Assembly (NCBI GenBank): GCA_017993055.1
Contig: JAGONM010000006.1
Location: forward strand, 868-64,867
Length of the DNA: 64,000 nt
Direction: 5' to 3'
Origin: Armatimonadota bacterium
GTDB taxonomy: Bacteria; Armatimonadota; UBA5829; DTJY01
The translations under genes were made by a program, and so were the position numbers. A model generated the notes under the pieces. That model did no database searches and was not told the DNA's origin. It saw nothing but the letters and a program-made list of their open reading frames with translations. Below, piece after piece: positions 52,652-59,551 of the stretch; positions within the stretch are counted from its first letter, which is position 1; each line of letters opens with the position of its first letter.

Positions 52652-54256
52652 ATGCGCAGACTCGTACCATACCTGACAGTCTTGCTGTTGCTCGTCGCCT
52701 TGACGACGGGGTATGCCCTCGACGCCCGGATGAAGTGGGTCGAGGTTGATGTCTCGCCGCACGCGAACGGTTTCGCCGATGTCGTCTACAAGATCCGGTG
52801 GAACGTCGTCAGCGGGGAGATGCACGCATTCTACTTCATGGGCTTCGGCGGCGCTGAGCCGACCTTCTCGCGAGAGCAGTGCTACGCGATCGATTCCGGC
52901 GGTCGGCGATACGGGCTCGATATAGCGAACCTCGGGGGCGGCAAGTACGACATTGTTCTGGCTGACGGCGCGGGCGCCGGATCGGGTGAGGTCACCTTCA
53001 TCCTTCCCTATGCCACGGACCTCGCCGGCGCGGGGATGCTCGACCTCACTAAGAGCGAGTTCGGCGAACTCGTGGTTTTCAACTGGTCGCCCGTGGAATG
53101 GGATCAGCCGCTCGAGCACGAGACGATCTACCTTCACTATCCCATCCAGGTGGAGGGTGAGCAGGTGACGCCCGAGCGCCTCGCGGAGGTCGGTTTCCGC
53201 ACGGAGAAGTTCGTAAACGAGCGATACCTCATCAGCTACTATGGACAGAAGTACGAGGGTACCTACTGGCTGACTGTCCGCTTCCACAGGAAAGACCTGC
53301 AGGCGCGTTACAACATGCGCGTGCAGGCCTATGTGTACTCGAAGTTCTTCCCGAACTTGCGGATTCCTGACTCGACCGGAGGGACCGGTCCTTCGTCTCT
53401 CGTCCCGAAGTCCTGGCCCGGACGTATCACTATCGCGATCCTGTTGGCGGTCGGCCTGGTGGGCATCGCGGTGGCGATGGTTCGTAAGAAGTACATGGCC
53501 TATTCAGCCGCCGCCGCCGAGATGGATGCCATTCGCTGGGATCGGACCGACTGGGTGCCGCCGAAGATAAAGGTCAGCAGCTTCCGCCAGGCCGGAAAGG
53601 TGGCGGATCTGCACCCGATCGAGGCTGCGTTCCTGCTCGATATCCCTGCGAACATGATTCTCGCCGCGATCGTGCTCGAGTTGGAGCGGAGGGGTCTGTT
53701 CAAGGTTCTGTCGCCCGATCCCCTTCGCGTCGAGCGCCTGTACCCCATCGGAGCGCTTCCCGACAAGCTCTACGAGGACATGATGTGGAACGCTGTCCGT
53801 GATGACGGTAAGCTCGACGACGGCGAGCTGAAGGCGGTGATCGAGCACATCGCGGACAATGTGCAGACGAAGTGCTGGGATTGCGACCTTGAGGCCACGA
53901 AGGAGTTCTACCGCAAGCAGATCAGGGAGCAGTTCGAGATCGCCGAGAAGAGCGGCACGGACGGGACGTATGATTCATGGGGGCACTCCTGGTCGCGGTA
54001 CTATGCATATCAGTTCCATCAGTACTCTCAGGGCAAGGAAACAGACGTGAGTCGGGGTATGCAGAAGGAACTGCCTTCACAGGGGATGGTCTCGGCGGCG
54101 GCAATTCGCGCGGACGCCTGTCACTCTGCCTGCTACGTTCACACCGCCTGCCACGACGCCTGCCACGATGCCTGTCACTCGGCCTGCCATTCAGCGTGCC
54201 ATTCGGCCTGCCATTCCGCATGCCATTCCGCGTGCGTGAGCGGGGGCGCGCGATGA
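52652..54256 (+). CDS. DUF2207-like membrane protein ending in an (Ala-Cys-His-Ser/Asp)n Cys-His repeat tail
   Basis: Signal/TM [22 protein letters not shown]. DUF2207-like N-terminal domain ([33 protein letters not shown]). Mid-protein TM ([19 protein letters not shown]). The C-terminus reads [48 protein letters not shown], in place of the Gly-rich tail usual for DUF2207. Its stop overlaps the start of the rSAM gene (ATGA). Confidence 0.7.
   Translation: [534 protein letters not shown]
54116..54236 (+). repeat. about 10 tandem copies of a 12-nt unit (gcctgccaytc-n) encoding A-C-H-S/D
   Basis: Direct reading gives gcc tgt cac tct / gcc tgc cac gac / gcc tgc cac gat / gcc tgt cac tcg / gcc tgc cat tca / gcg tgc cat tcg / gcc tgc cat tcc / gca tgc cat tcc / gcg tgc gtg agc. 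The repeat is coding, at the 3' end of the DUF2207-like gene. Confidence 0.75.
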
Positions 54257-55590
54257 AGAGCGCGAGGTCGATTCGTGGTCTGGCCTGGATTGACGGTTTC
54301 GTCAGGAACATCCGGCCGCACGTCTTCGTCCGCAGGCGAGACAGCCTGCTCATCCTGATGCCGAACCAGGCCTATCATCTGAACCGTACCGGCGTCTACC
54401 TGCTCAGCCGGACCCTCGCCGGAGAGCCGATCAGCCGCGTGCTTGGTCGGGCGATCGCGAAGCAGGACCAGACTGATGAGCGAGTGCAAGAGGTCAACGA
54501 CTTCTTCTGCGACGTCCGAGCGCTCGTGATGGGATGCCTGTGCGAGGGGCAGGGTAGGCGGGCCGTCGAACAGGTGCCGTTCCGCCGTAGCGGGAGTATC
54601 CTGCCGGTGTTGAGCGAGATAGCGGTGACCTATCGGTGCAACCTCGAGTGCCGATTCTGCTATGCCGGGTGCAGTTGCGCGAAGAAGCCCGATTCGGCCG
54701 AGATGACGGCCGCCGAGGTCGAGGTGGTACTGCGAAGGATACGCAACGAGGCTGAGGTCCCCAGTGTCAGCTTCACTGGTGGGGAGCCGACGATCCGAGA
54801 CGACCTGCCGAGGCTGATTCGCTCGGCTGTACGCATCGGACTCAGGGTCAACCTGATCACGAACGGCACGCTCTTGACGGATTCGCTAGCGCGAGAATTG
54901 AAGCGTGCGGGGCTTAGGAGTGCTCAGGTCAGCATCGAGGCCCCGACCGCTGAGGTCCACGATGGACTCACCGGCGTCCCGGGTTCGTTCGAGCGCACGG
55001 TCTGTGGGATCGAGGCATTGAAGGGCCGGGGTATCTACGTCCACACGCACACGACCATCAACCGCGTGAACGCCCGGCATGTGGGAGATATGCCCGCGCT
55101 GGCGAAATCACTCGGTCTGCAGAGGCTCTCGATGAACATGGTGATGCCTTGCGGAACGGCTGGAACCGGCGAGACCGCGCTTCGATACGGTGATGTCGGG
55201 GATCTCGTACGGCTGGTGAAACGTCGCGCAAGGGACGCCGGCGTCGAGTTCATGTGGTATTCGCCGACCCCGTACTGTGTGTTCAACCCGATCGCCGCCG
55301 GCCTCGGCGGAAAAGCTTGTGCTGCGTGCGACGGCCTGCTGAGCGTCGCCTCGAACGGCGATGTGCTTCCTTGCTCCAGCCTCGCCGATCCGGTGGGTAA
55401 TCTGCTCGATCGGAGTTTTGACGGCGTCTGGAACTCGGATCGCGCGCTCTACTATCGAAACAGGGAGTACGTGCCGGCGGAGTGTCGCTCGTGCGGGCGC
55501 CTCAAACTCTGCAGCGGGGCGTGTCCGATCTACTGGGGCGCCTTTGGCTGCGAAGAACTGGTGGGCGCGAGCACGGAAGCGATCGAATGA
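54253..55590 (+). CDS. radical SAM/SPASM-domain peptide-modifying enzyme with an N-terminal PqqD-like RRE
   Basis: CNLECRFCYAG (CxxxCxxC). The C-terminal SPASM Cys cluster is CAACDGLLSVASNGDVLPCS...CRSCGRLKLCSGACP. The first ~100 aa (LLILMPNQAYHLNRTGVYLLSRTLAGEPISRVLGRAI...VNDFFCDVRALV) look like a PqqD-like RiPP recognition element. Start codon overlaps the upstream stop. Confidence 0.85.
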   Translation: MKSARSIRGLAWIDGFVRNIRPHVFVRRRDSLLILMPNQAYHLNRTGVYLLSRTLAGEPISRVLGRAIAKQDQTDERVQEVNDFFCDVRALVMGCLCEGQGRRAVEQVPFRRSGSILPVLSEIAVTYRCNLECRFCYAGCSCAKKPDSAEMTAAEVEVVLRRIRNEAEVPSVSFTGGEPTIRDDLPRLIRSAVRIGLRVNLITNGTLLTDSLARELKRAGLRSAQVSIEAPTAEVHDGLTGVPGSFERTVCGIEALKGRGIYVHTHTTINRVNARHVGDMPALAKSLGLQRLSMNMVMPCGTAGTGETALRYGDVGDLVRLVKRRARDAGVEFMWYSPTPYCVFNPIAAGLGGKACAACDGLLSVASNGDVLPCSSLADPVGNLLDRSFDGVWNSDRALYYRNREYVPAECRSCGRLKLCSGACPIYWGAFGCEELVGASTEAIE

Positions 55591-58478: not shown

Positions 58479-59551
58479 TCGAACCAAAACCCGATTTCGA
58501 GCGCCTGCTCACCGCGCTGACCTGCTCCGGTGAACCGGACCGTGTACCGTTGGCCGAACTCGGCATAAGCTACGAGGTGATGTCCGGTTTCATGGGTGCG
58601 CCTGTAACGTGCTTCGAAGAGGCCGTCAGGTTCTTTGAGAAGGCGGGCTATGACTACCTCAAGGTGACGCCTCTCTACGACTGGAACCCCGAGAGGCGCG
58701 TTCCGAAGGAGGGAGTGCGCTCGGCCACCGGCCAGTTCAGCGCGAACACTGAGGATGAGATTCAGATCCGATATGCCTCCGAGGGTGCGGGTGTCATCAC
58801 CTCGATGGACGAGTTCGAGACCTACCCTTGGATGGACGTCGAGGACGTGGACTACTCGGTCTATCAGAAGGCGAACGACCTGCTCCCTGATGGCATGAGG
58901 ATCATCGGCCACCAGGGCGACATATTCACCCAGGGCTGGACGCTCATGGGGTTCGAGACACTTTCGTGGAAGATGATGGACGAGCCAGAACTCGTCGAGG
59001 CCGTCATGAACAAGACCGGCGAGATCATCTACAGCATTTTCGAGGTGATCGCCGAGCAGGAGAACATCGGAGCGCTCTGGATCTCGGACGACATCGCGTA
59101 TACGGAAGGGCTGATGGTATCACCGATCTTTCTGCGAGAGCACGTCTTCCCGTGGTTCAAGCGCATCGGGAACCTTGCGCGGGGCTTAGGCGTCCCATAC
59201 TTGTACCATTCCGACGGCGATCTCTGGCAGGTCATGCCCGATCTGCTCGACGATATCGGGTTCAACGCTCTCCAGCCCATCGAGCCGAAAGCGATGGATA
59301 TCCGCGAGTTGAAGCAGAAGATCGGTGACCGCGTGTGTCTGATTGGGAATCTTGATCTGGGCTATACGCTCACCCGTGGGACGCCGGAGGAGGTCGTCGA
59401 GGAGACGAAGGGACTCATCCGCGACGTGGCGCCGGGTGGAGGCTATTGCGTCGGGTCGAGCAATACGGTGCCGTACTATGTTCCCGCTGGCAACTACAAG
59501 GCGATGGTCGAGGCCACGCTCGAGTTCGGCAGGTACCCCATAGAGTTTTGA
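58475..59551 (+). CDS. URO-D family protein (MtaA/CmuA-like methyltransferase or decarboxylase fold)
   Basis: MIEPKPDFERLLTALTCSGEPDRVPLAELG... resembles the uroporphyrinogen-decarboxylase/MT2 family. 4-nt ATGA overlap with pepF. Confidence 0.7.
   Translation: MIEPKPDFERLLTALTCSGEPDRVPLAELGISYEVMSGFMGAPVTCFEEAVRFFEKAGYDYLKVTPLYDWNPERRVPKEGVRSATGQFSANTEDEIQIRYASEGAGVITSMDEFETYPWMDVEDVDYSVYQKANDLLPDGMRIIGHQGDIFTQGWTLMGFETLSWKMMDEPELVEAVMNKTGEIIYSIFEVIAEQENIGALWISDDIAYTEGLMVSPIFLREHVFPWFKRIGNLARGLGVPYLYHSDGDLWQVMPDLLDDIGFNALQPIEPKAMDIRELKQKIGDRVCLIGNLDLGYTLTRGTPEEVVEETKGLIRDVAPGGGYCVGSSNTVPYYVPAGNYKAMVEATLEFGRYPIEF

Follow-up and report, generated by a model that had tools for sequence, protein, structure and literature searches.

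Radical S-adenosylmethionine (SAM) enzymes that carry a SPASM domain and a peptide-recognition domain are chiefly familiar as producers of small cofactors or of secreted peptide natural products. Several families of curated radical-SAM targets have a cysteine at every fourth residue, namely TIGR04114 (equivalent to PF27846, tSAM_targ_Cxxx_rpt), TIGR04117 (Syntroph_Cxxx) and TIGR04118. To our knowledge, these Cxxx-repeat systems have so far been uncharacterized bioinformatic predictions; we take TIGR04115 to be their partner maturase and TIGR04116 their accessory protein. We analysed a 64 000-nt stretch of DNA from an Armatimonadota bacterium (contig JAGONM010000006.1, positions 868 to 64 867 of the forward strand; hereafter the window), in which a period-four Cys-His repeat forms the C-terminal tail of a membrane protein, g1, and is followed by the genes for a radical-SAM/SPASM enzyme, g2, and a second membrane protein, g3. 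As in the Cxxx-repeat systems, a Cys recurs at every fourth residue and the repeat is encoded beside a radical-SAM/SPASM enzyme. From comparison of the sequences, we think it rather probable that g2 modifies the C-H-x-A (CHxA) tail of g1 within a membrane unit made of g1, g2 and g3, together with a small protein, g0, in some lineages, and that the modified tail is a fixed product that stays tethered.

The g1 gene (52652..54256, + strand) encodes a 534-aa single-pass membrane protein, and its tail (54110..54253, +) is the proposed substrate or cofactor-forming segment. The tail runs from a pre-repeat stretch through the (CH[D/S]A) repeats to a terminal CVSGGAR. It contains 10 Cys and 10 His, nine of the His directly following a Cys, and Tandem Repeats Finder (TRF) reports a 12-nt tandem periodicity at 54145–54235. 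An earlier reading of the window by a model given only the letters and their open reading frames (ORFs), hereafter the original prediction, had described about 10 A-C-H-S/D repeats with a Cys every four residues. The 10 Cys and the period of four were confirmed, but only eight units are strict ACH[S/D] and one spacing is six residues. The regularity of the tail is far beyond chance.

The tail is almost invariant. Nearly every one of its residues is preserved in >150 loci that come from many phyla, and the number of repeats is nearly fixed, with 7–8 CxxxC in most loci. Over 81 loci, the positions C, H and A of the repeat are invariant while x is S, D, G or N, and identity within the 29-residue tail core amounts to 92% for the protein, 72% for the DNA and 42% for third codon positions. 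The body of g1, tail excluded, is only 36–45% identical across g1-anchored loci. Because protein identity in the core so exceeds both the third-position value and the identity of the body, the tail is under strong purifying selection and is the most strongly selected part of g1. An aromatic motif, [YF]xxF..[ST], is conserved just before the repeats.

Other ways of reading the tail were rejected. A small ORF of its own, beginning with the Met inside MVSAAAIR, was considered as its source; however, the tail continues the g1 frame, uninterrupted by a stop codon, at essentially every locus. P0012, the only full-length homologue from the initial search that seems to lack the tail, results from a frameshift in a contig of 1.7x coverage (L002:11450-11860), where the complete tail, FACHSACHDAC...ACVSGGAR, is found in another reading frame just before the enzyme gene. 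An HxsA-type His-Xaa-Ser repeat has the wrong register, as the tail reads H-S-A-C. As a separate observation, four distant g1 relatives (P0141, P0147, P0151 and P0152) have altered tails, for example CDSSC/CHSSC repeats ending in CVSDV. The Cys-His tail thus diversifies in some branches.

The curated Cxxx-repeat models recognize this tail poorly. TIGR04117, with a cut-off of 50 bits, returns scores of 13–28, among them 13.4 for the window protein and 28.1 for a relative (P0010); TIGR04114 reaches 7.4 bits where its cut-off is 20, and PF27846 is precomputed as a weak match on another relative (P0008). The g1 tail therefore resembles the Cxxx-repeat target families but is not a member of them by curated thresholds. 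The known targets are peptides or small proteins according to their NCBIfam descriptions, with models of 46–98 positions, whereas here a membrane protein of ~530 aa ends in the repeat at its C-terminus; and the g1 repeat is a fixed C-H-x-A with His, unlike the TIGR04114 and TIGR04117 targets. The presumed partner models do not fit either: TIGR04115 is outside the 25 best of the 85 NCBIfam families matched by g2, and so below 67.5 bits, and g3 does not match TIGR04116, having no NCBIfam match at E ≤ 0.01. A further likeness is to the ACGX-repeat system, which combines a period-four A-C-x-x repeat with a SPASM enzyme. On the enzyme model of that system, TIGR04340, g2 scores 77.5 bits, far under the cut-off of 400. 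The ACGX targets, for which we take TIGR04341 to be the peptide model, are free peptides of ~50 aa with Gly where the g1 tail has His.

For the remainder of g1, an AlphaFold2 (AF2) model (predicted local distance difference test score, pLDDT, 76) has a signal-like N-terminal helix followed by a confident β-sandwich (residues ~24–230) with a ribophorin-I/M1-N-like fold, one transmembrane (TM) helix (~261–292) with RKK directly after it, and a confident domain (~313–475) with a winged-helix-like start and a helical part. Based on the signal-like N-terminus, the single TM helix followed by RKK and the domain layout of the model, g1 is predicted to be a type-I single-pass protein, with the β-sandwich outside and the C-terminal domain and CHxA tail in the cytoplasm. 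This architecture resembles that of DUF2207 proteins (PF09972 and PF20990), which have a signal peptide and an extracytoplasmic β-sandwich, then membrane and cytoplasmic parts, and for which we know of no function. The assignment of g1 as a DUF2207-type protein in the original prediction comes down to a remote similarity. Window g1 has no Pfam match even at E = 10, and PF20990 (DUF2207_C) matches neither window g1 nor any of 13 g1 relatives, but PF09972, the DUF2207 N-domain, is matched remotely by 4 of the 13 family members (best E 4.6e-5). More generally, g1, g3 and g0 matched no Pfam or NCBIfam model, lenient thresholds included, and PDB sequence profile searches with the three proteins gave nothing meaningful. 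Members of the g1-g3 cassette are labelled as hypothetical proteins in the source databases.

Relatives of g1 are widespread. A word-indexed search found 15, nearly all of the complete ones ending in ACHxACHx...ACVSGG; 337 came from a pattern-based scan in which each GTDB species was represented by one genome; and a g1 hidden Markov model run against 1.84 billion cluster representatives found 751 clusters at E ≤ 1e-3. The best 80 of the 337 GTDB relatives, one genome per species and all of them metagenome-assembled or single-amplified genomes, were used as the g1-anchored set for synteny. They carry about 14 phylum-level labels: Armatimonadota, WOR-3, Stahlbacteria, Planctomycetota, Omnitrophota, Elusimicrobiota, Hydrogenedentota, Acidobacteriota, Nitrospiraceae, Clostridia, Gammaproteobacteria, Fischerbacteria, Auribacterota and CSSED10-310. 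The closest relative among them is from Armatimonadota, with 72% identity. A protein of a different kind, P0067 (540 aa), consists of a g1-like N-terminal part (signal, β domain, TM helix and the start of the cytoplasmic domain) fused to a g3-like C-terminal domain containing ..VGVQFQMAINNGPNGEVPYVYAVF..STGYRTD..; the tail, the enzyme and the g3 TM helices are skipped. This is either a Rosetta-stone-type fusion linking g1 and g3 or an assembly chimera.

The second gene, g2 (54253..55590, +), encodes a 445-aa enzyme and begins within the stop codon of g1 (ATGA overlap). Pfam Radical_SAM (PF04055) matches residues 125–278 with 95.4 bits (cut-off 29.5) and SPASM (PF13186) matches residues 356–414 with 35.3 bits (cut-off 21.5). 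The CX3CX2C motif (C129, C133 and C136) is invariant in an alignment of 23 homologues, as are seven Cys of the SPASM region (~342–424), C342, C356, C374, C411, C414, C420 and C424, which include a CX2CX5CX3C arrangement. With both domains above cut-off, the CxxxCxxC motif and SPASM Cys cluster of the original prediction are borne out, and g2 is a member of the radical SAM superfamily and of its SPASM subgroup (TIGR04085-type), in which a Cys-rich domain at the C-terminus serves two auxiliary 4Fe-4S clusters. It does not belong to a described maturase family: it is far below every cut-off of the named models PqqE, MftC, AhbD, NirJ, StsB, SkfB, ScmE/F, GeoRSP, HxsC4 and WgkB. The best NCBIfam scores are 147 bits for AhbD (cut-off 500), 120 for PqqE (381) and 100 for MftC (265), with NirJ2 also among the best, and the StsB and SkfB models give 68–84 bits against cut-offs of 300–625. 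We also note extra semi-conserved Cys at residues 86, 94, 140 and 142, in the form of FFCD...GC in the N-terminal domain and CYAGCxC right after CX3CX2C; the latter is absent from WOR-3 g2 orthologues.

Profile matches of g2 in the PDB (SkfB, PqqE, SuiB, CteB and anSME) align only from residue ~110 onward, so that residues 1–110 appear to form an extra N-terminal domain. SkfB, SuiB and CteB likewise have unaligned N-terminal sequence at this place, and it is in this position that these maturases have their recognition element (RRE) for RiPPs (peptides that ribosomes synthesize and that are modified post-translationally). The best PDB match of a family profile of the g2 N-domain is weak, being to TfuB1, an RRE of lasso-peptide biosynthesis (63 columns, E 0.022), and Pfam PqqD (PF05402) is matched weakly by 12 of 23 g2 orthologues (best E 0.0017). 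A longer N-terminal g2 profile searched against the PDB added no RRE evidence. At the level of the family, these weak matches make it plausible that g2 carries an RRE-like domain at its N-terminus.

The tail and the enzyme are linked in both directions. When the best 80 g1-anchored loci were searched with the window proteins by tblastn, g1, g2 and g3 were found adjacent and co-oriented wherever the contig continues, often with overlapping start and stop codons. One seeming counter-example, L026, was discarded, as a masked run of N lies directly after g1. For the reverse test, metagenome contigs were scanned with motifs from the g2 alignment, and the best 80 loci (43–62% identity to g2) were taken, 76 of which have enough upstream sequence. 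An ORF with the CHxA tail ends just upstream of g2 in 71 of the 76, and in at least 73 after inspection, which recovered a locus with an inserted gene (L111) and one with an extended tail (L161). As a negative control, two distant g1 relatives without the tail, P0111 and P0140, were examined, and in neither case is a SPASM enzyme encoded directly downstream. The co-occurrence of tail and radical-SAM gene in related genomes, which the original prediction had proposed as a check, thus held in both directions. An accidental or locally syntenic pairing of g1 and g2, without any connection in function, is hardly credible: the two genes stay adjacent across the ~14 phylum-level labels in gene neighbourhoods that are otherwise entirely different, and the two-way linkage effectively refutes this explanation.

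Some loci depart from the usual layout. At L111 (1700-2790), the ORF between the g1 tail and g2 is tetratricopeptide repeat (TPR)-like and encodes ~300 aa; at L161 (3400-4010), the tail is extended to ACVSGGGGSSGGGGSSGSW. Gene order differs in L163 of the g2-anchored set, and in both L152 and L163 a g3-like gene lies upstream instead of downstream of g2.

Clustering of all ORFs within 5 kb of the cassette in the 80 loci showed that, beyond the three core genes, only g0 recurs widely; no peptidase and no transporter or exporter does so. Since only these genes recur, the functional unit would appear to be g1-g2-g3, with or without g0. The third core gene, g3 (55618..56679, +; start probably the ATG at 55624), encodes a 353-aa membrane protein with four TM helices and a cytoplasmic α/β domain; its conserved motifs are DAR..F..AP..F.G.Q.Q.S.N.VQG..YPY.Y and V.RQ.T...GYHT. 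The g3 protein is identical to P0016, recorded from an 'Armatimonadetes bacterium', which makes an Armatimonadota metagenome-assembled genome the most likely source of the window. The g0 gene (52068..52478, +) ends 173 nt upstream of g1 and encodes a small soluble orphan protein of ~127–136 aa, a lineage-restricted accessory gene of the cassette without Pfam or PDB sequence match. It is directly upstream of g1 in 41 related loci, about half, with 53–85% identity, in Armatimonadota, WOR-3, Stahlbacteria, Acidobacteriota and other lineages, and its family alignment has a mean column identity of 64%. Because the homologues begin at an M..PYGEI motif, its true start is probably 52089 or 52095.

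We favour a model in which g1, g2 and g3, plus g0 in some lineages, would act as one unit at the cytoplasmic face of the membrane. The enzyme would dock on the aromatic motif preceding the repeats, as a putative recognition element, and would modify the tail while it remains attached to g1. That g2 acts on the tail is suggested by the two-way linkage, the translational coupling of the two genes and the presence, in a SPASM enzyme, of an extra PqqD-like domain. The likeliest chemistry would be Cys-centred, for example thioether cross-links like those known from sactipeptides, ranthipeptides or QhpD, since these have the best precedent for SPASM enzymes on Cys-rich targets. The product would be a fixed, protein-tethered module, cross-linked and/or metal-binding, following the logic of QhpC, anSME targets, PqqA and MftA; a tethered module is preferred over a secreted product because the tail hardly varies between phyla and neither a protease nor an exporter is conserved. 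g3 would be an obligatory membrane partner, possibly a holder or chaperone for the tail.

Several observations weigh against this model. Gly is tolerated at position x of the repeat, which argues against a side-chain acceptor there. Invariant Cys and His at a period of four would serve equally well for simple binding of metal or Fe-S clusters along one side of a helix, and in the AF2 model the tail is helical, with low confidence. Residues 1–115 of window g2 give no PqqD match at E ≤ 10, so that the PqqD-like N-terminal element of the original prediction survives as the weak family-level TfuB1 and PqqD matches and not as a match in the window protein. Finally, no peptide-maturase family is reached by g2, and its best scores are with the heme and PQQ enzymes AhbD, NirJ2 and PqqE.

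These points lead to an alternative in which the tail is an unmodified metal- or Fe-S-binding segment, with a Cys stripe and a His stripe on a helix that is maybe bundled in oligomers, and g2 is linked to it for another reason; the tail might serve the enzyme as cluster donor or as a conduit for electrons, or the substrate of g2 might be a small molecule that the membrane complex of g1 and g3 handles. The invariance of C and H alongside a variable x, the predicted helix, the missing conserved protease or exporter and the resemblance of g2 to cofactor enzymes rather than RiPP maturases all agree with it. So does the presence of NifU and NifS-like (cysteine desulfurase) genes after g3 in 10–12 Elusimicrobia-type loci (e.g. 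L054:12371-14559 and the P0005 contig), where a different, 195-aa membrane ORF takes the place of g0 upstream. This adjacency could reflect synteny within the lineage or point to a link with Fe-S chemistry, but it is limited to one lineage. Other points also speak against a plain metal-binding tail: Ala is as invariant as Cys and His, although simple metal ligation does not need it; the extra N-domain of g2, with its weak PqqD/RRE signal, is a hallmark of peptide-binding maturases; and the strict linkage of tail and enzyme, with the curated Cxxx-repeat targets as precedents, favours a substrate relationship. We regard the metal-binding tail as unlikely, though it is the main alternative to modification by g2. 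The two explanations are not mutually exclusive.

The original prediction had proposed a RiPP-like system of six tightly packed genes, in which an M3 peptidase and a UroD-like protein would be components. The range 52652–59551 holds five ORFs, the sixth conserved gene being g0, which lies upstream of the range. The tight packing itself was found as described, with junctions from g1/g2 to g4/g5 of ATGA overlap, 27 nt, 14 nt and ATGA overlap. g4 (56694..58478, +; 594 aa) is indeed an M3-family oligoendopeptidase (TIGR02290, 589.2 bits, cut-off 561.7). g5 (58475..59551, +; 358 aa) has the generic URO-D fold (Pfam URO-D, 75 bits, cut-off 23.9), but the more specific MtaA-type assignment fails, as the MtaA/CmuA models are far below their cut-offs (TIGR01463, 55 against 235; MtaA, 52 against 400). 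Promoter and terminator scans at the locus gave matches at chance level only.

With these two genes, a classical RiPP pathway can be drawn in which the tail is modified by g2, cut by the M3 peptidase, processed further by the UroD/MtaA-like protein and released. The close packing of g3, g4 and g5 in the window genome and the confirmed M3 and URO-D domains are in keeping with such a pathway. Elsewhere, however, L006, which is the closest relative, is the only locus with the M3 gene beside the cassette, and there the g3-g4 gap is ~160 nt and the gaps around g4 and g5 are 137–160 nt; a UroD-like gene is near the cassette in L006 and, as weak homologues, in L012 and L048 only. Synteny thus confines the pair to L006, and we rejected g4 and g5 as members of the system. 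Without a recurrent peptidase or exporter, and with a 534-aa membrane precursor whose core is 92% identical across phyla, which is atypical for secreted RiPPs, a cleaved product fits poorly and this pathway is highly improbable. Nor does the cassette have the features of a classical RiPP cluster, in which a short precursor with a leader and a variable core is accompanied by a conserved leader peptidase and/or an exporter.

Downstream of g5, a 220-aa, lipoprotein-like ORF (59635–60297) has a weak CarboxypepD_reg match below cut-off, and its homologue (48% identity) also follows g5 in L006. It is followed by a 570-aa ORF (60310–62022) that by eye resembles a YifB/ComM-type Mg-chelatase-related ATPase, and by two small adjacent ORFs (62034–62222 and 62226–62441) that by eye resemble a HicA/HicB-type toxin-antitoxin pair.

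Among characterized enzymes, the ranthipeptide and sactipeptide maturases (CteB/SCIFF, PapB/freyrasin, SkfB and SuiB) share with g2 the order of N-terminal extension, radical-SAM core and SPASM/twitch domain, and CteB, PapB, SkfB and SuiB-type maturases act on Cys-rich substrates with repeated cross-link motifs. Their substrates are leader-plus-core peptides that are cleaved and exported, whereas the g1 substrate would be a protein tail, with no protease or exporter conserved. QhpD/QhpC, of the quinohemoprotein amine dehydrogenase system, and anSME with its sulfatases share their logic with the proposed g1-g2 system: the target is conserved, the mature protein keeps its modification and the SPASM enzyme is cytoplasmic. 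They differ from it in that there is no sequence-family membership and the target here is a membrane-anchored repeat tail, not a small subunit or active site. Relative to DUF2207 proteins, g1 differs in having no match of its own to the family and in a Cys-His tail at the place of the Gly-rich one that the original prediction gives as usual. A literature search found no paper on a CHxA-tail/radical-SAM cassette. The claim in the original prediction that no comparable system had been described is nevertheless too strong, given the curated Cys-repeat targets and enzymes (TIGR04114, TIGR04117, TIGR04118, PF27846 and TIGR04340). What appears to be new, judged by the profile scores, is a C-H-x-A family tethered to a membrane protein and falling below all Cxxx cut-offs, with an enzyme and accessory proteins outside the associated models.

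A broader proposal, which we put forward tentatively as possible but on balance doubtful, is that the cassette represents a widespread, so far undescribed class of protein-derived cofactor or structure. g2 would turn the invariant (CHxA)n tail into a rod with covalent cross-links that binds metal or clusters and remains anchored on the cytoplasmic side of the membrane. With g3, this rod would connect the domain outside the cytoplasm to redox or metal chemistry inside it, acting as a new kind of sensor or of electron or metal relay, in anaerobic, mostly uncultured phyla.

In this system, what g2 appears to act on is the tail that a large membrane protein has in the cytoplasm. This tail is among the best-conserved elements of the locus across the ~14 phylum-level labels, and no cleavage or export machinery accompanies it. 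Because the system is compact, with a substrate segment of ~50 residues and one enzyme, it is directly testable. If the tail is modified as we propose, RiPP-type chemistry would be extended to permanent, membrane-tethered protein modification, and the cassette would provide a first functional handle on the DUF2207-like family and on the orphan families g3 and g0, as well as on the long-predicted Cxxx-repeat class of radical-SAM targets.

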